Position numbers and translations under genes: made by a program
DNA from: Escherichia coli
GTDB lineage: Bacteria > Pseudomonadota > Gammaproteobacteria > Enterobacterales > Enterobacteriaceae
Assembly (NCBI RefSeq): GCF_041886205.1
Contig: NZ_CP169029.1
DNA length: 64,000 nt
Direction: 5' to 3' (one strand)
The notes under the pieces: generated by a model
The model's database searches: none
What the model saw: the letters and a program-made list of their open reading frames with translations, nothing else
What the model was told of the DNA's origin: nothing
Shown here: piece after piece, positions 27,532-50,650 of the stretch
Numbering within the stretch: position 1 is the stretch's first letter
How the letters are laid out: each line of letters starts with the position of its first letter

Positions 27532-28488
27532 TCAATACCCCATATTTTTCTTCTTCTCTAACTCTTCTTTTGCGGTATCAGGCAGATAAAGGGTGGATTT
27601 GGTCAGCGTCAGCTTTTCAGGCATGGTGCCGTCTTTTTTGTATTTCTCCAGCGCGTCGAAGGCGGGACCTGCCATATTCGGCGTCAGTTCAACACTGGCG
27701 TTCGCTTCGCCATCAATCATCGCTTTGTAGATATCCGGTACGCCGTCGATAGAACCTGTCAGAATATCTTTGCCTGGTTTCAGGCCCGCTTCTTTAATTG
27801 CCTGAATTGCACCAATCACCATGTCGTCGTTATGGGCGTAAACCATGCAGATGTTTTTGCCGTTGTTTTCCGCTTTGATAAAGCTCTCCATGACTTCTTT
27901 GCCTTTACTGCGGGTGAAGTCACCTGACTGCGAGCGGATAATTTTGATATTTGGCGCATTCTTAATGGCTTCGGCAAAGCCTTTCTTACGGTCAATGGCG
28001 ACGCTGGCCCCAACAGTGCCCTGCAGCTCCACCACGTTGCATGGTTTGCCATTCACTTCTTTTACCAGCCAGTCACCAATCAACTTGCCTTCGAGAATGT
28101 TGTCGGCAGTGACGGTGGTCATATAGAGAGATTTGTCTTTCACATCAATAGAACGATCGAGCAAGAAGACCGGGATTTCGGCATCTTTCGCCTCTTTTAA
28201 TACCGGTTCCCAACCAGTCGCAACCACCGGAGCGATAAAGATCGCATCCACCCCTTGCGCGACGAAGGAACGTACCGCTTTAATCTGGTTTTCCTGCTTT
28301 TGCTGACCATCGGCAATTTTCAGCGTAATTCCGCGTTTTTCGGCCTCACTTTTCGCCACATTGGTTTCTGCGGCGCGCCAGCCAGATTCCGATCCGACCT
28401 GCGAAAATCCTACGGTTAATGGAGCGGCCAACGCCATAGACGACATGGCTGCCGAGACTGCAGAGACTACAAGTAAGCGTTTCCACAT
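27532..28488 (-). CDS. ytfQ: Galactofuranose-binding periplasmic protein YtfQ
   Basis: 318-aa ORF with signal peptide, K-12 synteny. Confidence 0.94.
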   Translation of the reverse strand: MWKRLLVVSAVSAAMSSMALAAPLTVGFSQVGSESGWRAAETNVAKSEAEKRGITLKIADGQQKQENQIKAVRSFVAQGVDAIFIAPVVATGWEPVLKEAKDAEIPVFLLDRSIDVKDKSLYMTTVTADNILEGKLIGDWLVKEVNGKPCNVVELQGTVGASVAIDRKKGFAEAIKNAPNIKIIRSQSGDFTRSKGKEVMESFIKAENNGKNICMVYAHNDDMVIGAIQAIKEAGLKPGKDILTGSIDGVPDIYKAMIDGEANASVELTPNMAGPAFDALEKYKKDGTMPEKLTLTKSTLYLPDTAKEELEKKKNMGY

Positions 28489-28797
28489 AGGGTTGTCCTC
28501 GTCGGGGTAATTATTATTGGTGAAAAGATGTTCGCGAAAAAACTATAGACAATTCGTTATGTAACGGATTGCGTTACATCACACTTCAAAGAAGTAAATA
28601 AAACGTTAATCACAAGTTTGTAATCGCTTTCATCTCACTATGAAAAATGCGGCTACGGTTATGGATTTTCCTGCTCTGTATACCGTCTTAAAATTGGCGA
28701 AAAAGGAAAATGAAGACGAAAACAAGCGAAGACATTCGGCGCGAGTTGGCTATAATACTCGGCACTTGTTTGCCACATATTTTTAAAGGAAACAGAC

Positions 28798-29329
28798 ATG
28801 AGCTTACTCAACGTCCCTGCGGGTAAAGATCTGCCGGAAGACATCTACGTTGTTATTGAGATCCCGGCTAACGCAGATCCGATCAAATACGAAATCGACA
28901 AAGAGAGCGGCGCACTGTTCGTTGACCGCTTCATGTCCACCGCGATGTTCTATCCGTGCAACTACGGTTACATCAACCACACCCTGTCTCTGGACGGTGG
29001 ACCCGGTTGACGTACTGGTCCCGACTCCGTACCCGCTGCAGCCGGGTTCTGTGATCCGTTGCCGTCCGGTTGGCGTTCTGAAAATGACCGACGAAGCCGG
29101 TGAAGATGCGAAACTGATTGCTGTTCCGCACACAAAGCTGAGCAAAGAATACGATCACATTAAAGACGTTAACGATCTGCCAGAGCTGCTGAAAGCGCAG
29201 ATCGCTCACTTCTTCGAGCACTACAAAGACCTCGAAAAAGGCAAGTGGGTGAAAGTTGAAGGTTGGGAAAACGCAGAAGCCGCTAAAGCTGAAATCGTTG
29301 CCTCCTTCGAGCGCGCAAAGAATAAATAA
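28798..29329 (+). pseudogene. ppa: Inorganic pyrophosphatase, reading frame broken by an apparent +1 insertion near 28999
   Basis: Track ORFs 28798..29010 and 28850..29329 are the N- and C-terminal halves of Ppa in different frames; span is 532 nt = 531 + 1. Extra G read in ...ctggacggtgGacccggtt. Confidence 0.9.
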
Positions 29330-29344
29330 GTTCTTATAGCGCAA

Positions 29345-29386
29345 TAACCCTGAACACCGGGCTTCGGTTAGTAAGGGTTTTTTTAT
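29345..29386 (+). terminator. Probable ppa terminator
   Basis: GC-rich imperfect hairpin followed by a T7 run downstream of the ppa stop. Confidence 0.4.
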
Positions 29387-29405
29387 GCCCGCGATAAATA
29401 AACAC

Positions 29406-29758
29406 TTATTCCACCACCGCCTGCAAGCGTAATAACGCCTCTTCCACCACCTCATCCGCAGCCAGACCAATACGCTTTGCCAGCCGGGCGCGTAGATCCA
29501 TCATCCGCACCTGATTAACCAGCACCACGCCGTGCACATCGCCTTCTTCGCAATGTAAAGGAACGCTAAATCCGGCATAACGGGCAAAATTTCCACACCC
29601 TGCGTAATGGGGGCCACCAGCGTCATTCCCAGTTGATTAAAGGCTTGAACGGAGAGCACAAGCGCAGGTCGACCAGCACCTTGCTGTTCATGGCCGCTTG
29701 CTGGATCAAAGCCAACCAGCACAATGTCTCCCCGTTCAAATTCACTTTTCTTTACCAT
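29406..29758 (-). pseudogene. chpB: ChpB (MazF-like) toxin, frame broken by an apparent 2-bp tandem duplication near 29585-29588
   Basis: Track ORF 29501..29758 matches ChpB through ...VAPITQG, then diverges; the remaining ChpB sequence continues in another frame to a stop near 29406. Confidence 0.85.
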
Positions 29759-30003
29759 ATTTCGTCACCCGCAGGGGTGGATTTACCCCAGACATCCTGC
29801 TCGCTAAGTTCCGCGGCGTTCATGTCACACTGTGCCAGCAGTTCATCAAGCGAGTAGCGCCTGGAGATGGGTGTCAGAATCAGTTGGTTGTTGCTCACCT
29901 GCGCTTCCACGCTCTGCCCCGGCTGTAAGTTAAGTTCTTTCATTACGATATTGGGAATGACCATACCTGCACTGTTCCCCCATCTTTTTATGGTAATACG
30001 CAT
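29752..30003 (-). CDS. chpS: ChpS antitoxin (MazE-like)
   Basis: 83 aa from the internal Met (MRITIKRWGNSAGMVIPNIVMKELNL...); appears intact. Confidence 0.9.
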   Translation of the reverse strand: MRITIKRWGNSAGMVIPNIVMKELNLQPGQSVEAQVSNNQLILTPISRRYSLDELLAQCDMNAAELSEQDVWGKSTPAGDEIW

Positions 30004-30017
30004 CTGCACCTCCTTAA

Positions 30018-30034
30018 GTTATACAAAGTATAAC
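30018..30034. promoter_or_regulatory. Palindrome upstream of chpS, candidate autoregulatory operator
   Basis: Perfect inverted repeat gttatacAAAgtataac just upstream of the chpS start. Confidence 0.4.
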
Positions 30035-30175
30035 TCACGGTGCTACAGGAAACGTTTTACCCCTGCGCATTTGTGAATGCCAGCAGAGTTTTTTATGCGT
30101 TAATAGATATGGAAAGCGGCTCGGAGAGAAAAGCAAAAGGTGAGGGAATTACAAAACAGAATGCGAGTCGTCTCG

Positions 30176-30218
30176 CAAAAAACAACGCCACCCGCGAAGG
30201 TGGCGTGCTTTTATTATT
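30176..30218. terminator. Hairpin with flanking A/T runs downstream of ytfP, probable bidirectional terminator
   Basis: cgccaccc-gcgaa-ggtggcg stem-loop with an A-run on one side and a T-rich run on the other. Confidence 0.55.
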
Positions 30219-30558
30219 ACTTATCCCTGTCTAACCAGTCGCCGCTTTCAATTAGCTTTAATCCATCGACGGGTCGTTGATAAACGTACATCCATGCACT
30301 CCCGTACGGCGTCTGAATCAACTGGCGCGCGTATTCACCGCCCCTGGTGCGCAAGGCATCAAGTTCGGCCAGCGTGGCGTTGTCAATACGATAAACTTCA
30401 CCGTGTACTGTTCCGTTCCCCGGAACTGCGCCTGGATAGTGGCCCAGGCTATACAACTGGTAGTTATCGATACTGAAATCGCCCAGTAACTGGGCATTGG
30501 TCATCCAGTGACTGTTGCCTTGTTTGTGGCGTAAACTGCCGTAGACAAATATTCGCAT
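30217..30558 (-). CDS. ytfP: Gamma-glutamylcyclotransferase-family protein YtfP
   Basis: 113-aa ORF, intact, K-12 synteny. Confidence 0.92.
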   Translation of the reverse strand: MRIFVYGSLRHKQGNSHWMTNAQLLGDFSIDNYQLYSLGHYPGAVPGNGTVHGEVYRIDNATLAELDALRTRGGEYARQLIQTPYGSAWMYVYQRPVDGLKLIESGDWLDRDK

Positions 30559-30560
30559 TG

Positions 30561-36126
<5,566 letters not shown>

Positions 36127-36289
36127 TTAAACGGCTTAACAAAAATCCAGTAATATGGATTAAAAAGCAGACTAAACCCCAAATATTTCTTATGTTTTAC
36201 TTTAGACCTATTCACGGTGGTTATTGTGTGCAAATACGCCTCTTGTTACAACCTTAACCCCAATGACCGATTTTCGGGAGAGCGACACC

Positions 36290-36931
36290 ATGAGTTTATT
36301 TGATAAAAAGCATCTGGTTTCCCCCGCCGATGCCCTGCCTGGACGTAACACCCCGATGCCCGTAGCCACGCTGCATGCGGTCAACGGTCACTCAATGACC
36401 AATGTACCTGACGGAATGGAGATTGCCATTTTTGCGATGGGTTGTTTCTGGGGTGTGGAGCGTCTGTTCTGGCAGTTACCCGGCGTTTACAGCACCGCCG
36501 CAGGCTATACCGGCGGCTATACGCCAAAAAATCCGACTTATCGGGAAGTGTGCTCCGGTGATACGGGTCATGCCGAAGCGGTACGCATTGTTTACGATCC
36601 TTCCGTCATCAGCTATGAGCAGTTGCTACAGGTATTTTGGGAGAATCACGATCCCGCCCAGGGAATGCGTCAGGGCAATGACCACGGCACGCAGTATCGT
36701 TCAGCGATTTATCCGCTGACCCCAGAACAGGATGCCGCAGCTCGCGCCAGTCTGGAACGTTTTCAGGCGGCGATGCTTGCCGCCGATGACGATCGTCGCA
36801 TCACCACGGAAATCGCTAACGCCACACCGTTTTATTATGCCGAAGATGACCACCAGCAATATCTGCATAAAAACCCGTATGGTTACTGTGGAATTGGCGG
36901 AATTGGCGTCTGTCTGCCGCCGGAAGCATAG
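36290..36931 (+). CDS. msrA: Peptide methionine sulfoxide reductase A
   Basis: GCFWG active-site motif; open throughout. 213 codons here versus 212 aa remembered for K-12, possibly an in-frame 3-bp A-run expansion near 36526-36531. Confidence 0.92.
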
Positions 36932-36977
36932 CGTTACGGGTACAAATGTAGATTGTCGATAAAGTGCTATTTGTCTA

Positions 36978-37078
36978 TGCCGGATGCGGCGTAAACGCCT
37001 TACCAGGCCTACAAAATCGTCCAAATTCAATATATTGCATGGACTGCGTAGGCGGCCTGATCGGCATAGCGCATCAGG
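36978..37078. repeat. REP/BIME palindromic repeat cluster
   Basis: gccggatgcggcgtaaacgcctta(t)ccaggcctac-like units between msrA and ytfL. Confidence 0.65.
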
Positions 37079-37256
37079 CAGTTTTGCATTTATTAGCAGC
37101 CTGAATTTTAACCCTCTGGCGGCTTTACAGTACCTTACGCTATACTAGCCACTGAAAATGCCGGTTCACTTTCTTCGAATCGGCTTTCAATGTGTATTTC
37201 ACACAAATTAATCAACTTCCCCTTCCGAGGATCTGGCCTGAAAGGTCGGATAAGAT

Positions 37257-38603
37257 ATGTTAAACAGTATTTTAGTCATACTCTGCTTGATCGCTGTAAG
37301 TGCGTTCTTCTCGATGTCCGAGATCTCACTTGCCGCCTCACGCAAAATCAAACTTAAACTGCTGGCTGATGAAGGCAATATAAATGCCCAACGCGTTCTG
37401 AATATGCAGGAAAATCCCGGCATGTTCTTTACCGTGGTCCAAATCGGTCTGAACGCAGTGGCGATTCTCGGCGGTATCGTCGGTGATGCGGCATTTTCTC
37501 CAGCTTTTCACAGCCTGTTCTCCCGCTATATGTCGGCAGAGCTCTCTGAGCAACTGAGCTTTATTCTCTCTTTCTCGTGTTAGTGACTGGCATGTTTATC
37601 CTGTTTGCGGATTTAACCCCGAAACGCATCGGTATGATTGCGCCAGAAGCTGTGGCTTTGCGTATCATCAACCCGATGCGCTTCTGCCTGTACGTTTGCA
37701 CCCCGCTGGTGTGGTTCTTCAACGGCCTGGCGAACATGATCTTCCGTATTTTCAAACTGCCAATGGTACGTAAAGATGACATCACTTCTGATGACATCTA
37801 CGCGGTAGTGGAAGCCGGTGCGCTGGCGGGCGTGTTACGTAAACAGGAACACGAGCTGATTGAAAACGTCTTTGAGCTGGAATCCCGAACCGTTCCGTCT
37901 TCAATGACACCGCGTGAAAACGTGATTTGGTTTGATCTCCACGAAGATGAGCAAAGTCTGAAGAATAAGGTGGCGGAACATCCGCACTCTAAGTTCCTCG
38001 TCTGTAATGAAGATATTGACCACATCATCGGCTATGTCGATTCTAAAGACCTGCTGAACCGCGTGCTGGCTAACCAAAGCCTGGCACTGAACAGCGGCGT
38101 ACCAAATTCGCAACACGCTGATTGTGCCGGATACGTTAACCCTTTCAGAGGCGTTGGAAAGTTTTAAAACCGCAGGTGAAGACTTCGCGGTGATCATGAA
38201 CGAGTACGCGCTGGTGGTGGGGATCATCACCCTCAACGACGTGATGACCACGCTGATGGGCGATCTGGTCGGTCAGGGTCTGGAAGAGCAGATTGTCGCC
38301 CGTGATGAGAACTCATGGCTGATTGACGGCGGCACTCCGATTGACGACGTCATGCGCGTGCTGGATATTGACGAGTTCCCGCAGTCGGGCAACTACGAAA
38401 CCATCGGCGGCTTTATGATGTTTATGCTGCGTAAGATCCCGAAACGCACCGATTCGGTGAAATTCGCCGGCTACAAATTTGAAGTGGTGGATATCGATAA
38501 CTACCGCATCGACCAGCTGCTGGTGACCCGGATCGACAGCAAGGCCACCGCCCTTTCGCCAAAACTGCCTGACGCTAAAGATAAAGAAGAAAGCGTCGCG
38601 TAA
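37257..38603 (+). pseudogene. ytfL: CNNM/CorC-family membrane protein YtfL (DUF21 + CBS + CorC-HlyC), two apparent frameshifts
   Basis: Three track ORFs (37257..37583, 37577..38167, 38124..38603) tile the YtfL sequence; 2-bp dup near 37577-37580 and +1 C near 38102-38103. Confidence 0.87.
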
Positions 38604-38664
38604 CCCCCAGAAACATCAACGGCTCCTGAATCAGGAGCCGTCTTATTACTGCATAGCACTTTGG

Positions 38665-38871
38665 TTAAGCCATCTCTGTTTGCAGACGCATAACCTGACG
38701 GTTAACTTCGGACATCACTGACAAATGCAGCTTATCCTTCACTTTTGGGATAAGAATCTTACCCTTATCAAATTCAAAAGCGCCAACGTCCTTGATGTAT
38801 AACCGTCCACGGAACAGGATCTTTACGTACTTCGCCACCTGAAGTGGGTTGTACCGTTGGAAAATTTTCAT
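38665..38871 (-). CDS. ytfK: Small protein YtfK (DUF1107)
   Basis: 68 aa from the internal Met ([30 protein letters not shown]...), intact. Confidence 0.9.
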
Positions 38872-39198
38872 TGTTATCTCCTGCTGAGTATTACGCCTGT
38901 GCGGTGCCACAATCGGCCCAACTATTATGAGGCGCAAATTTTAATGCTTAGTGACTATAGACTATCCGGGCAATGTTTCCACCGCGTATAACTTTTTTTA
39001 CCTAAAGGTTACAATTATTCAGAATTATCTTTTTACCGAAGCGCGGTCTTCAGTATAAGCATTCATTTTTCATATGATTTGTGCGCTTGACCGCAAACTG
39101 GCATCACACTTGCGGGAAATTCGATAAATAGCACATATTATGATTAAAACTCAGACCCAAGTGGTCGGATCACCTGCATATCATAAGAAGGAAACACC

Positions 39199-39755
39199 AT
39201 GACCCTACGCAAGATTCTGGTACTCACCTGCCTGCTGTTGCCGATGATGGCTTCCGCACATCAGTTCGAAACCGGTCAGCGAGTGCCGCCGATTGGCATT
39301 ACCGATCGTGGCGAGTTGGTGCTTGATAAAGATCAGTTTAGCTACAAAACCTGGAACAGCGCGCAGTTAGTGGGAAAAGTGCGAGTACTGCAACATATTG
39401 CTGGTCGCACCTCTGCAAAAGAGAAAAACGCGACGCTGATTGAAGCGATTAAATCAGCGAAGTTACCGCACGATCGTTACCAGACCACCACCATTGTTAA
39501 CACCGACGACGCAATTCCGGGTTCCGGCATGTTTGTGCGCAGCAGTCTGGAGAGTAATAAAAAGCTTTATCCCTGGTCGCAGTTTATTGTCGATAGCAAT
39601 GGCGTCGCGCGCGGTGCCTGGCAGCTGGATGAAGAAAGTTCCGCTGTGTAGTGGTGCTGGATAAGGATGGTCGCGTGCAATGGGCCAAAGACGGGGCGCT
39701 CACTCAGGAAGAGGTGCAGCAAGTGATGGACCTGCTGCAAAAGTTGCTCAAATAA
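39199..39755 (+). pseudogene. ytfJ: Periplasmic protein YtfJ, truncated at residue 150 by an apparent 2-bp tandem duplication near 39645-39648
   Basis: Track ORF stops at 39651 after ...EESSAV; the rest of YtfJ (VVLDKDGRVQWAKDG...QKLLK) continues in the +2 frame to about 39755. Span is 557 nt = 555 + 2. Confidence 0.85.
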
Positions 39756-39817
39756 TGGCAACAACATAGAGTCTGCAAAAATAATATTCCCCTGTCGATA
39801 CCTATGGGATAGGGGAA

Positions 39818-40783
39818 TTAAGTGTATGAGTTCTTACGCCGAACTAATACTGGTAACGCTAGTTGCTCTTTTTTAAACGCCTCAATGGTAGATTTATATT
39901 TCTCGCAAATCTCCTCTTCGGTAATATCACTATCTACCGCCAGATTCGCACTTACTATCGCATCCACTTGTTCGGCTAATTCCACTTGTTGGCAACCTGC
40001 ATTAACCAGAAAATTATAAATAAGAGAGTAATCTTCATCCTCCAAAACAACAAAGGAACCATTACGAAAACGTTCATCCCCTCCATAGATTGTAAGTACA
40101 GAGCCCAAAGATTCTATGACTATGGCAAAATTATCATCAATTATTTTTTCGTAAATAAATATACCATCCATCGCATTCTTTAATTCCACCTCCTGGTATT
40201 TGGAGTTCAAATTTACCCCGTTTTAATTTGCTTACTATATCCTCCAATAAGGCATAACCTAAAGACACGTCACCAAACGCCTGGCGAATATAACCTTTAA
40301 TCCTTTTCGGTATGTCAGACTGTTTTTTCGGTATGTCAGACTGTTTTTTCTGTAAAATATCCCAGGCATACAATCTTCTGTTTTGTTCTAACGGAAACTC
40401 GCGGTTTTTGAAATCCATGAATGAGTTATACTCATTTATTGTTATGGGAATTTCTTCGTATTCAAACCCACTGCCTCGCAATGTCATTGTATATTCGGCA
40501 CCGTTATCTTTAAGGCTGAAACTGATAAGAAACTTATCCATGGCGTTAACAGTTTCATTTTTTGATGAAAGTACCTGATAACTATTTTTATCAATCTGAG
40601 TTGCGCAACGAAAGAACTCCCTCAAAGTTAAGAGGCTATCATAATTCGAAACCCAATCTTTTTCCCTCCTAAATGCATGCTGAATATTATTAAAAAATTG
40701 TTTGAATGTGTTTTTGTATGCGATGATTTTACAAATAACTCCACCGCACCAATAAAATTATTGTGTCTGATCCTGGGTAACAT
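39818..40783 (-). pseudogene. ytfI: AT-rich uncharacterized protein YtfI, split into at least two or three frames
   Basis: Track ORFs 39818..40210 and 40137..40625 overlap in different frames; an in-frame ATG further upstream (about 40781-40783) opens a third frame that runs into a stop near 40630. Confidence 0.7.
40304..40345. repeat. Perfect 21-bp tandem duplication inside ytfI
   Basis: ttttcggtatgtcagactgtt occurs twice head-to-tail, encoding the repeated heptapeptide KKQSDIP. Confidence 0.8.
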
Positions 40784-40994
40784 ATGGCCACCTTATTTTA
40801 TTTGGTTATTTTATGTCGCCATTAAATATCTCATTATAGAAGTAAACTATCAAAAAACGCTCATTATTAAAATGTAACTTATTAGCAATTGAATTTTTGC
40901 ACTTTAAATACAATCTCTTTTTATTTATAACTTTTTAGGTTGGGAGAAATCAGGATGGCAGAATCAGGAAATACACTGTTTCTGCCATCTGAAT

Positions 40995-41742
40995 TTAGTA
41001 AATAGACACTCTGAACCCCGGATTCAGGAACGACTCGCGCGGAGTGTAATCCAGCGGTTTACCCTGCCAGTCGTGAACGTGCGCTCCGGCAGCTGCAGCC
41101 ACAGCATGTCCAGCGGCGGTGTCCCAAATATTCGTTGGTCCGAAGCGCGGGTACAGCTGCGCCTGTCCTTCCGCCACCACCAGGCAGAATTTCAGCGAAG
41201 AGCCGATGGACGTGGTCTGATGTTCGCCAAGCTGTTGCAGATACTCTTTCAGCTCCGCATCTGCATGGGAACGGCTGATAACCACCAGCGGCGGGCGCGC
41301 ATCGCGGACCTGAATCTGCTTGCGCACACCGCACTCTTCTTTCCAGGCTTTACCTTCTGCCGCGCTGTACATTACGTTCATTACCGGCGCATACACCACA
41401 CCTAAAATCGGTTTGCCGTGATCGATGAGCGCAATGTTAACGGTGAATTCGCCATTACGTTTAATAAACTCTTTAGTACCATCCAGCGGGTCTACCAGCC
41501 AGTAACGCTGCCAGTGCTGACGGACTTCCCAACCGGGAGGATCTTCTTCAGAAAGGACCGGAATATCCGGTGTCAGCGTACGTAAACCGTCCATGATAAC
41601 GGTGTGTGCGGCAATATCCGCTGCCGTTACCGGAGAATTGTCCGCTTTGCTGACGACGTCCATCGGTTTCGCCCCGTCGTAGACCTACCTGCATAATGGC
41701 ATCGCCTGCATTCCGTGCAAGCTGGCATACTTGATCTAACAT
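40995..41742 (-). pseudogene. cysQ: 3'(2'),5'-bisphosphate nucleotidase CysQ, frame broken by an apparent 4-bp tandem duplication near 41683-41690
   Basis: Track ORF 41548..41742 matches CysQ through ...GDAIMQV then diverges; ORF 40995..41663 carries the rest ([20 protein letters not shown]...). Plus-strand acctacct reads as a doubled acct. Confidence 0.87.
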
Positions 41743-41922
41743 TTCTCCACCTCGTCTCTGTGAGCGGTGTTAACTTATTGTTTTACTTATACCCTATCGT
41801 TAATGAATGCGCCAACTGTGATAGTGTCATCATTTTCAAAGCGTAAAATTGTGGCATTCTTCACTGTTCTATAAGTAAGACGTTTATTCTCCCTTTTCTT
41901 TCGTATTCCCGATGATAAAAGG

Positions 41923-43882
41923 ATGTCCCTGATGATTAAGTTTAGCGCAACGCTCCTGGCCACGCTGATTGCCGCCAGTGTGAATGCAGCGACGGTCGAT
42001 CTGCGTATCATGGAAACCACTGATCTGCATAGCAACATGATGGATTTCGATTATTACAAAGACACCGCCACGGAAAAATTCGGACTGGTACGTACGGCAA
42101 GCCTGATTAACGATGCCCGCAATGAAGTGAAAAACAGCGTACTGGTCGATAACGGCGATTTGATTCAGGGGAGTCCACTGGCCGATTACATGTCGGCGGC
42201 GAAAGGATTAAAAGCAGGTGATGTTCATCCGGTTTATAAGGCGCTGAATACGCTGGATTACACGGTCGGTACACTCGGCAATCATGAATTTAACTACGGT
42301 CTGGATTACCTGAAAAATGCGCTGGCGGGAGCGAAATTCCCTTATGTAAATGCCAACGTCATTGACGCCAGAACCAAACAGCCAATGTTTACACCGTATT
42401 TAATTAAAGATACCGAAGTGGTCGATAAAGACGGAAAAAAACAGACGCTGAAGATTGGCTATATTGGCGTCGTGCCGCCGCAAATCATGGGCTGGGATAA
42501 AGCTAATTTATCCGGAAAAGTGACGGTGAATGATATTACCGAAACCGTGCGCAAATACGTGCCTGAAATGCGCGAGAAAGGTACCGATGTCGTTGTCGTT
42601 CTGGCGCATTCCGGGCTATCTGCCGATCCGTATAAAGTGATGGCGGAAAACTCAGTTTATTACCTCAGTGAAATTCCTGGCGTTAACGCCATTATGTTTG
42701 GCCATATGCTCACGCCGTTTTCCCAGGTAAAGATTTTGCTGATATCGAAGGGGCTGATATCGCGAAAGGCACGCTGAATGGTGTTCCGGCGGTAATGCCG
42801 GGCATGTGGGGCGATCATCTTGGGGTGGTCGACTTACAACTCAGTAATAACAGCGGTAAATGGCAGGTGACGCAGGCGAAAGCGGAAGCACGGCCGATTT
42901 ACGACATCGCCAATAAAAAATCCCTCGCGGCGGAAGACAGCAAGCTGGTAGAAACACTCAAAGCCGATCACGATGCCACACGCCAGTTCGTCAGCAAGCC
43001 AATCGGTAAATCCGCCGACAATATGTATAGCTATCTGGCGCTGGTGCAGGACGATCCGACCGTGCAGGTGGTGAACAACGCGCAAAAAGCGTATGTCGAG
43101 CATTACATTCAGGGCGATCCGGATCTGGCAAAACTGCCGGTGCTTTCAGCTGCTGCACCGTTTAAAGTTGGTGGTCGCAAAAATGATCCGGCAAGCTATG
43201 TGGAGGTGGAAAAAAGGCCAGTTGACCTTCCGTAATGCCGACGATCTTTATCTCTACCCCAATACGCTGATTGTGGTGAAAGCCAGCGGTAAAGAGGTGA
43301 AAGAGTAGCTGGAGTGCTCCGCCGGACAGTTTAACCAGATTGATCCTGACAACACGAAACCACAGTCACTCATCAACTGGGATGGTTTCCGCACCTATAA
43401 CTTTGATGTGATTGATGGTGTGAATTATCAGATTGATGTTACCCAGCCTGCCCGTTATGACGGCGAGTGCCAGATGGTTAATGCCAATGCGGAAAGGATT
43501 AAGAACCTGACCTTTAATGGCAAGCCGATTGATCCGAACGCCATGTTCCTGGTTGCCACCAATAACTATCGCGCTTACGGCGGCAAATTTGCCGGTACGG
43601 GCGACAGCCATATCGCTTTTGCTTCACCGGATGAGAACCGCTCGGTGCTGGCAGCGTGGATTGCTGATGAGTCGAAACGTGCGGGGGAAATTCACCCGGC
43701 GGCAGATAACAACTGGCGTTTTAGCACCGATAGCTGGCGATAAGAAACTGGATATCCGTTTCGAAACCTCTCCATCAGATAAAGCCGCGGCGTTTATTAA
43801 AGAGAAAGGGCAATATCCGATGAATAAAGTCGCGACCGATGATATCGGGTTTGCGATTTATCAGGTGGATTTGAGTAAGTAA
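41923..43882 (+). pseudogene. cpdB: 2',3'-cyclic-nucleotide 2'-phosphodiesterase / 3'-nucleotidase CpdB, four disruptions
   Basis: Fragments 41923..42777, 42795..43235, 43093..43308, 43408..43743 and 43517..43882. Apparent 2-bp dup near 42704-42707, +1 A near 43210-43215, in-frame TAG at 43306-43308 where Trp is expected, +1 T near 43729-43732. Confidence 0.87.
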
Positions 43883-43909
43883 TACACTTCTTTTTCGGCC
43901 TATAAATCA

Positions 43910-44000
43910 TCAACCGCATCCGGCACTTTTGTCGGATGCGATGCTGGCGCATCTTATCCGCCCTACAAGTCATGAACCGTAGGCCGGATAAGCGCAGCCG
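43910..44000. repeat. REP/BIME palindromic repeat cluster
   Basis: gcatccggc...gccggataagcg-type palindromes between cpdB and ytfH. Confidence 0.65.
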
Positions 44001-44004
44001 GCAG

Positions 44005-44385
44005 TTATGCCGCACGTTCATCCCGCACCGCCAACACCTCGGGCAAATTCAACTCAATCCAGTCCGCCAGTGCAGCAACCTTTTCGCTCACCTGCTCGCC
44101 CAGCGGCGTGAGGCTATATTCCACATGCGGCGGCACCACCGGATACGCGATACGGTTAAGAAAACCATCCTGTTCTAACGCCTGTAACGACTGCGCAAGC
44201 ATCTTTTCACTCACCCCACCGATTTTGCGCCGCAGGTCGCTAAAGCGATGAGTACCTTCGCGTAGCGCCACCAGAATCAACACCCCCCAACGGCTGGTGA
44301 CGTGTTTCAACACCTCGCGCGACGGGCACTGTTCCGCAAAGAGATTACCCTCTTTCAGTTGTTGTGACAGGCTAACCTGACTCAT
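44005..44385 (-). CDS. ytfH: HxlR-type HTH transcriptional regulator YtfH
   Basis: 126 aa from the internal Met (MSQVSLSQQLKEGNLFAEQCPSREVL...); divergent from ytfG. Confidence 0.9.
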   Translation of the reverse strand: MSQVSLSQQLKEGNLFAEQCPSREVLKHVTSRWGVLILVALREGTHRFSDLRRKIGGVSEKMLAQSLQALEQDGFLNRIAYPVVPPHVEYSLTPLGEQVSEKVAALADWIELNLPEVLAVRDERAA

Positions 44386-50469: not shown

Positions 50470-50650
50470 TACGTCTGGCTTCCAGTGCCTGGGGGGAAAC
50501 CATACTGATATGTTGACATCCTCCACGCCCTGAAGGACGTGGATCCCTGCTACGTTCAGGCTGTCGCCTGAATCATTTCGGTGGGTTCCTGCTTCAACGA
50601 GCGGCCTGACTGCACCATCTCTCCACAGGCAAGAACGGCGTGCCCCGCCG
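50470..50650 (-). ncRNA. Predicted omega-RNA (TnpB guide RNA) overlapping the tnpB 3' end and the adjacent IS end
   Basis: Inferred only from the known architecture of TnpB systems; structured hairpin-containing sequence lies just downstream of the tnpB stop. Confidence 0.25.

Follow-up and report, generated by a model that had tools for sequence, protein, structure and literature searches.

The gene cysQ is broken as written in the 64,000-nucleotide stretch of Escherichia coli DNA analysed in this study (the window), and, judged from the pattern in which it is embedded, its frameshift is very probably the joint scar of a deterministic artefact of non-biological origin. The status of cysQ as a natural pseudogene is almost certainly not supported by the sequence, as both lesions of the gene lie on a regular grid of small duplications and are found in no independent genome. 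What we observe directly are the individual events of this series and the exact grids that they form, and further that relatives lack them and that genes are fully restored upon their removal (Table 1).

In its present form, the frame of cysQ reads MLDQVCQLARNAGDAIMQV and then continues into out-of-frame residues, resulting in an open reading frame of 64 amino acids in total, while the remnant of the protein is contained in an open reading frame of 222 amino acids that begins at Met26. This remnant scores 468.8 bits against the equivalog model NF008182 (cutoff 379, NCBIfam whole-protein score) and 341.5 bits against the second CysQ equivalog model of the pair NF008182 and TIGR01331 (cutoff 228.8), and an exact-product lookup found the 222-residue product not to be on record. 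A full-length uninterrupted frame of about 246 amino acids is absent as written and is regained once one ACCT and one CCA are removed, with the repaired gene encoding 246 residues and showing 0 nucleotide differences from the cysQ of strain wlxctx60 (WP_000886884.1). At positions 41683-41690, the plus strand reads ACCTACCT, which is equivalent to atgcAGGTAGGTctac on the minus strand, where the stretch of cysQ spanning the site of the +4 insertion is atgcAGGTAGGTctacgac. The surroundings of the gene display the synteny cpdB-cysQ-ytfI-ytfJ that is the same in all E. coli.

To characterize the lesions, a query of 951 bases around cysQ was compared with complete E. coli genomes, in which NZ_AP045833.1 (wlxctx60) was the best match among 5,420 matching genomes. 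The differences are confined to the +4 insertion at 41687-41690 and the +3 insertion at 41180-41182, whereas the other 944 of 944 bases are identical. Both insertions are missing from all 5,420 complete genomes, where the top identity is 99.3% (944/951), and a 28-mer across the cysQ junction has 0 matches in collections of representative genomes and of metagenome contigs. The initial annotation had claimed that a 4-bp tandem duplication breaks the frame of cysQ and had called for an alignment to a reference gene; this alignment, with its 944 of 951 identical positions and its two insertions, bears out the claim, and removal of one ACCT returns the 246-residue protein. Its suspicion of a further in-frame insertion, which was based on a downstream part that appeared one codon too long, proved correct and is explained by CCACCA at 41177-41182, which encodes an extra Val. 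The disruption of the gene and its downstream insertion are thus present as described. What did not hold is the implied isolated and gene-specific inactivating mutation, since the two lesions are numbers 19 and 20 in a row of 24 micro-duplications arranged on grids. A tandem 4-mer by itself is unremarkable, because the window contains about 4 of them per kb and cysQ alone contains 4, and its status as an insertion is evident only from the comparison of genomes. We also considered a phase-variable simple-sequence contingency locus for cysQ, which was rejected in light of just two copies of ACCT, compared to one in relatives, and the absence of a long repeat tract.

The extent of the series became apparent when the complete window was aligned with 70 kb from wlxctx60. 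Between positions 29000 and 43722 (14.7 kb), 24 of 24 indels are insertions in the window, each being an exact copy of the 1-4 bases just before it, and they are accompanied by 3 SNPs, so that indels outnumber SNPs 8:1. No motif is common to the duplicated bases of the series, and most events are located outside of homopolymers. Between neighbouring joints, the size of the duplication differs by at most 1 in 19 out of 20 cases (permutation p = 0.0015), and this smooth drift suggests a systematic, slowly drifting offset, not a set of independent mutations. The alignment of the region 2555-52989 contains 27 gap openings as well as 69 mismatches, the majority of which cluster in the divergent stretch 2555-3717; that of the region 54294-64000 contains 2 mismatches and 0 gaps. 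Outside of the series, indels are limited to three small ones at 3024-3028, within the naturally divergent left end of the window, and the remainder outside of the series and this left end (1-3717) shows 14 SNPs and no indels over about 48 kb.

The left end itself (1-3717) shows 97.8% and 86% identity to wlxctx60 with clustered SNPs, whereas its identity to other E. coli reaches 99.8-99.9% and its length is unchanged relative to them; it is a natural recombinant or allelic tract. An open reading frame of 531 amino acids in this part (1521-3116), assigned as 'DNA-binding protein', is intact in the window and frameshifted in wlxctx60.

Table 1. Duplications, affected genes and implied segments. 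Coordinates refer to the window; pairs give both copies of the duplicated unit, and + numbers are inserted bases.
Feature	Coordinates	Strand	Remarks
cysQ, 3'(2'),5'-bisphosphate nucleotidase	40995..41742	-	748 nt instead of 741; two periodic duplications inside
ACCT ACCT tandem pair, +4	41683..41690	+	series event 20; frameshift past CysQ codon 19
CCA CCA tandem pair, +3	41177..41182	+	series event 19; extra Val in LKFCLV(V)AEG
Full series: 24 tandem duplications of 1-4 bp, all perfect	28999..43722	.	54 extra bases in total
Series pairs 1-6	28999-29000 G; 29595-98 AC; 30193-96 CG; 32213-16 TC; 32777-78 C; 33339-40 C
Series pairs 7-12	34427-28 G; 34951-54 AG; 35474-79 GGA; 35999-36006 CCTG; 36526-31 AAA; 37051-56 GGC
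Series pairs 13-18	37577-80 GT; 38102-03 C; 39136-41 TAT; 39646-49 GT; 40154-61 AATA; 40665-70 CCT
Series pairs 19-24	41177-82 CCA; 41683-90 ACCT; 42196-201 GCG; 42704-07 AT; 43214-15 A; 43721-22 T
ppa, inorganic pyrophosphatase	28798..29329	+	G duplication at 28999-29000; frameshift past codon 67, stop three codons on
tamB	30561-34344	-	+2, +1, +1; frameshifted
tamA	34341-36084	-	+1, +2, +3, +4; frameshifted
cpdB	41932..43882	+	four series hits: +3, +2, +1, +1
chpB			+2
paeA			+2, +1
ytfJ			+2
ytfI-like pseudogene			+4, +3
msrA			one codon added by the series
Spacer ytfP/chpS			one duplication, +2
Spacer paeA/msrA			one duplication, +3
Spacer ytfJ/ytfK			one duplication, +3
Putative chunk-and-rejoin region	28403..44228	.	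each grid extended one step; not directly visible
Implied segment 1	about 28403-30792
Implied segment 2	about 30792-31653		single piece
Implied segment 3	about 31653-33901
Implied segment 4	about 33905-38626
Implied segment 5	about 38631-44228

The spacing of the events is as regular as their kind. Successive gaps between events 1-13 amount to 597, 598, 2020, 563, 562, 1088, 525, 524, 526, 526, 525 and 525 bp, and those between events 13-24 to 524, 1036, 509, 510, 510, 512, 507, 512, 507, 509 and 507 bp. When 24 sites were placed at random 200,000 times, neither the observed number of near-equal successive gaps nor the observed minimum gap was matched a single time (0/200,000). For a quantitative description, we fitted grids in pre-insertion coordinates, allowing for the sliding ambiguity of each tandem duplication. 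Exactly constant steps are admissible within four blocks, at 594.5-597 bp in block A, 559.5-562.5 bp in block B, 522.15-522.83 bp in block C and 506.0-506.9 bp in block D, and linear fits yield steps of 595.75, 561.0, 522.42 and 506.47 bp that leave residuals of up to 0.5, 0.67, 0.58 and 1.43 bp, respectively. Both cysQ lesions are located on the 506.5-bp grid of block D together with eight other events, with residuals of at most 1.4 bp. If extended by one step, the end of grid B is found at 33891.7 and the start of grid C at 33896.2, 4.5 bp apart, and the end of grid C at 38598.0 and the start of grid D at 38603.2, about 5.3 bp apart. Since these grid ends nearly meet, the 'missing' events correspond to borders between blocks. 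Of this anatomy, the exact grids and the points at which they meet are firmly established. A single smooth 'chirp' of shrinking spacing was rejected, as the 2018-bp gap does not accommodate an integer number of intermediate steps while the block model fits; similarly, a rule in which the duplication size equals min(j, N-j) per segment comes near to a fit in block C (1, 2, 3, 4, 3, 3, 2, 1) and fails for B and D. The first event of the series (28999-29000) is located at the near-round window coordinate 29000; this may be chance, with odds of roughly 1 in 300, or may hint at an operation anchored to round contig or window coordinates.

The series shifts the frame of ppa, chpB, tamB, tamA, paeA, ytfJ, cysQ and cpdB. 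The shift in ppa is uncompensated, and with one G deleted the gene is 100% identical to the reference ppa, a gene described as essential for E. coli growth (Chen et al., 1990, PMC526883, as cited in PMC9959109). Upon deletion of all 24 duplications, each of the 15 genes from ytfQ to qorB is full-length again and differs from wlxctx60 by 0-1 nucleotides. The sole lesion left after this repair is a TAG at codon 457 of cpdB (43306-43308), which is independent of the series and common to wlxctx60, where it is annotated as internal stop, and to strain 6EVA, where cpdB is split into products of 456 and 157 amino acids; it is a genuine lineage-level pseudogene of natural origin. In the ytfI-like region, a minus-strand open reading frame (40137-40625) contains a 7-residue tandem repeat KKQSDIPKKQSDIP. 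The underlying 21-bp duplication is natural and shared, because there is no indel relative to wlxctx60 at this repeat. In wlxctx60, the annotation of this region gives a hypothetical gene with a frameshift, and the relative L007 lacks the region.

The relatives of the strain are free of the series. The exact QorB allele of the window, encoded 3 kb from cysQ, is found in 2,228 blocks of a public collection, and in 8 of 8 distinct genomic contexts listed with the identical allele, CysQ is 246 amino acids long. None of the series sites covered in these eight contexts carries a duplication (0/17 in collinear loci). If the insertions are set aside, one mismatch in every 6-9 kb separates L007 from the window. 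Another locus with the same QorB allele (L005, GCA_019269275.1, CP078572.1, 7151-17147) contains IS1 copies that split cpdB and an inverted cysQ-ytfJ-paeA side with intact cysQ. This arrangement is a natural IS1-mediated rearrangement of the cysQ locus.

We propose that a region of about 15.8 kb (window positions ~28403-44228) would have been split into five adjoining segments of about 2383, 861, 2244, 4702 and 5571 bp, that each segment would have been cut into floor(L/500) equal pieces, which are 4, 1, 4, 9 and 11 in number and 596, 861, 561, 522.4 and 506.5 bp in length, and that these pieces would have been rejoined with their last 1-4 bases repeated at each joint inside a segment and with nothing repeated at the joints between segments. 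The four longer segments and their numbers of pieces are implied by the grids, and the 861-bp piece without internal joint falls within the 2018-bp gap that separates block A from block B. The segment borders do not match gene borders. An artefact and not mutation is indicated by the single kind and direction of the events (24/24 insertions), their constant spacing within blocks, the empty segment borders and the drifting size of the overlap, and equally by the broken essential gene ppa, the 8:1 ratio of indels to SNPs and the relatives without a trace of the series. As its source, we infer software, in the form of an assembly, consensus or polishing step or of later in-silico handling. The floor(L/500) rule, which is likewise part of the inferred scheme, is satisfied by every implied segment and is only suggestive, because it is self-consistent for several piece counts. 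Several points count against the model: the unsplit 861-bp segment that is required to accommodate the 2018-bp gap is ad hoc, adjacent grids end 4-5 bp apart instead of meeting exactly, and the best-known programs for windowed consensus work with fixed windows in draft coordinates and do not divide segments equally. The underlying organism, an E. coli near wlxctx60 and 6EVA, most likely contains intact copies of cysQ, ppa, tamA, tamB, msrA, paeA and ytfJ.

Among the alternatives, we have considered a genuine and recent natural pseudogene, in which AGGT would have been duplicated by replication slippage and the PAP phosphatase lost, as in host-restricted lineages of E. coli and Shigella. Spontaneous mutations normally include small tandem duplications, and the lineage has real lesions in the shared nonsense codon of cpdB, the insertion of an IS3-family element in yjfZ and an IS609-like element. 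The lesion in cysQ alone is not biologically impossible, because loss of the gene is viable, with deletion mutants merely growing slowly without cysteine, at a rate reduced about 2.3-fold on minimal medium (PMC1935014). Conversely, neither lesion is independent of the surrounding technical pattern, as both share their 506.5-bp grid with eight other events, the 24 indels stand against 3 SNPs with ppa broken by the same series, and the insertions were encountered in none of the 5,420 complete genomes, the eight close contexts and the searched collections. We thus regard this origin as very unlikely.

Highly improbable is also a scenario in which the duplications are real but man-made, with a synthetic or re-assembled construct of 15.8 kb consisting of equal-length fragments and carrying a scar at each junction. 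The equal division into pieces of 500 bp or more is reminiscent of the way synthesis orders are partitioned, and the genes of a cloned construct need not work, so that the objection from ppa falls. Against it are scar sizes of 1-4 bp that are free of a motif, unlike the scars of fixed overhangs or restriction sites, flanks that consist of uninterrupted native chromosome with natural IS elements, the absence of vector or designed sequence from the region and the lack of a motive for rebuilding an unremarkable stretch of DNA. The same variation in size (1-4 bp) and the motif-free duplicated bases led us to reject restriction, Golden Gate or transposon target-site scars.

Hardly any credence can be given to an ordinary stochastic long-read error, an uncorrected nanopore or PacBio indel that would have happened to strike cysQ. 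Assemblies based exclusively on long reads retain indels that create false frameshifts, and errors of this type are enriched in homopolymers and comprise deletions as well (PMC11232133), whereas the events observed here are found mostly outside of homopolymers, are insertions in 24 of 24 cases, duplicate their preceding bases exactly and follow an exact spacing, with about 48 kb outside of the series and the left end (1-3717) being devoid of indels. The periodicity (0/200,000 random placements) effectively refutes this reading. Windows on a raw-read backbone or fixed-time chunks of a basecaller were rejected too, as by our own reasoning these would be expected to show a jitter of several to tens of bp compared to the residuals of about 1 bp.

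Finally, the chances of a biological process leaving micro-duplications at fixed intervals, such as a translocating nickase combined with fill-in, are vanishingly small: filled-in staggered cuts can in principle yield duplications of 1-4 bp and the events are restricted to one contiguous tract, but a step of L/floor(L/500) that varies by no more than about 1 bp across 8-10 events matches no known enzyme, the essential gene ppa is inactivated and relatives carry no trace. For the same reading in its most physical form, with the 24 micro-duplications present in the DNA of the cell, perhaps in a redundant or silent copy, after a processive activity had introduced staggered cuts at fixed distances that were filled in and resealed, we see virtually no prospect.

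Beyond the series, the window contains mobile elements. A complete IS3-family element of 1310 bp (52984-54293), with terminal inverted repeats of 25 bp and an OrfB of 296 amino acids, is inserted in yjfZ (DUF2686) and flanked by a 4-bp target-site duplication (GTTG). Its first bases (TGAACCGCCCCGGGAATCCTGGAGAC) match those of IS629, and its insertion junction (~52984) was found in no complete E. coli genome. An IS200/IS605-type element at ~50556-52386, composed of a TnpB-like open reading frame of 402 amino acids (50556-51764) and a TnpA-like open reading frame (51772-52386), interrupts a gene of the TetR family; it is shared by wlxctx60, where it is annotated as IS609, and its state varies in the loci L008-L011.

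With the chunk-and-rejoin artefact as preferred explanation, the biological weight of the cysQ lesion is small, as CysQ is most likely normal in the strain and even a true pseudogene of cysQ would be nothing out of the ordinary. The finding instead serves as a warning concerning data quality. About 15.8 kb of the window (~28.4-44.2 kb) would hold 17 false frameshifts and 7 false in-frame insertions that touch ppa, chpB, tamB, tamA, msrA, paeA, ytfJ, the ytfI-like open reading frame, cysQ and cpdB, and any 'pseudogenes' or odd open reading frames called within this region should be discounted as probable products of the same artefact.

A literature search for a published description of this exact signature found none. 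CysQ of E. coli, a member of the inositol-monophosphatase superfamily (WP_000886884.1), is the same as the product of the window after repair, to which the window as written adds the +4 frameshift and the extra Val. Pseudogenes of E. coli and Shigella that originate from short duplications resemble cysQ in the two-copy tandem duplication, the resulting frameshift and the dispensable nature of the gene; unlike the series, natural pseudogenes are scattered, come together with SNPs, leave essential genes untouched and are in many cases common within a lineage. There is also a likeness to artefacts of windowed consensus or polishing, as exemplified by Racon, which splits contigs into non-overlapping windows (PMC11232133): regular small indels appear at joints of about 500 bp, in one tract, with near-perfect sequence in between. 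In contrast to Racon-type windows of fixed 500 bp in draft coordinates, which would be expected to show spacings of about 500 bp with jitter, the spacings found here are exact at 506.5, 522.4, 561 and 596 bp, all of them at least as long as the default window of 500 and none equal to it, and too regular for windows on an error-rich backbone.
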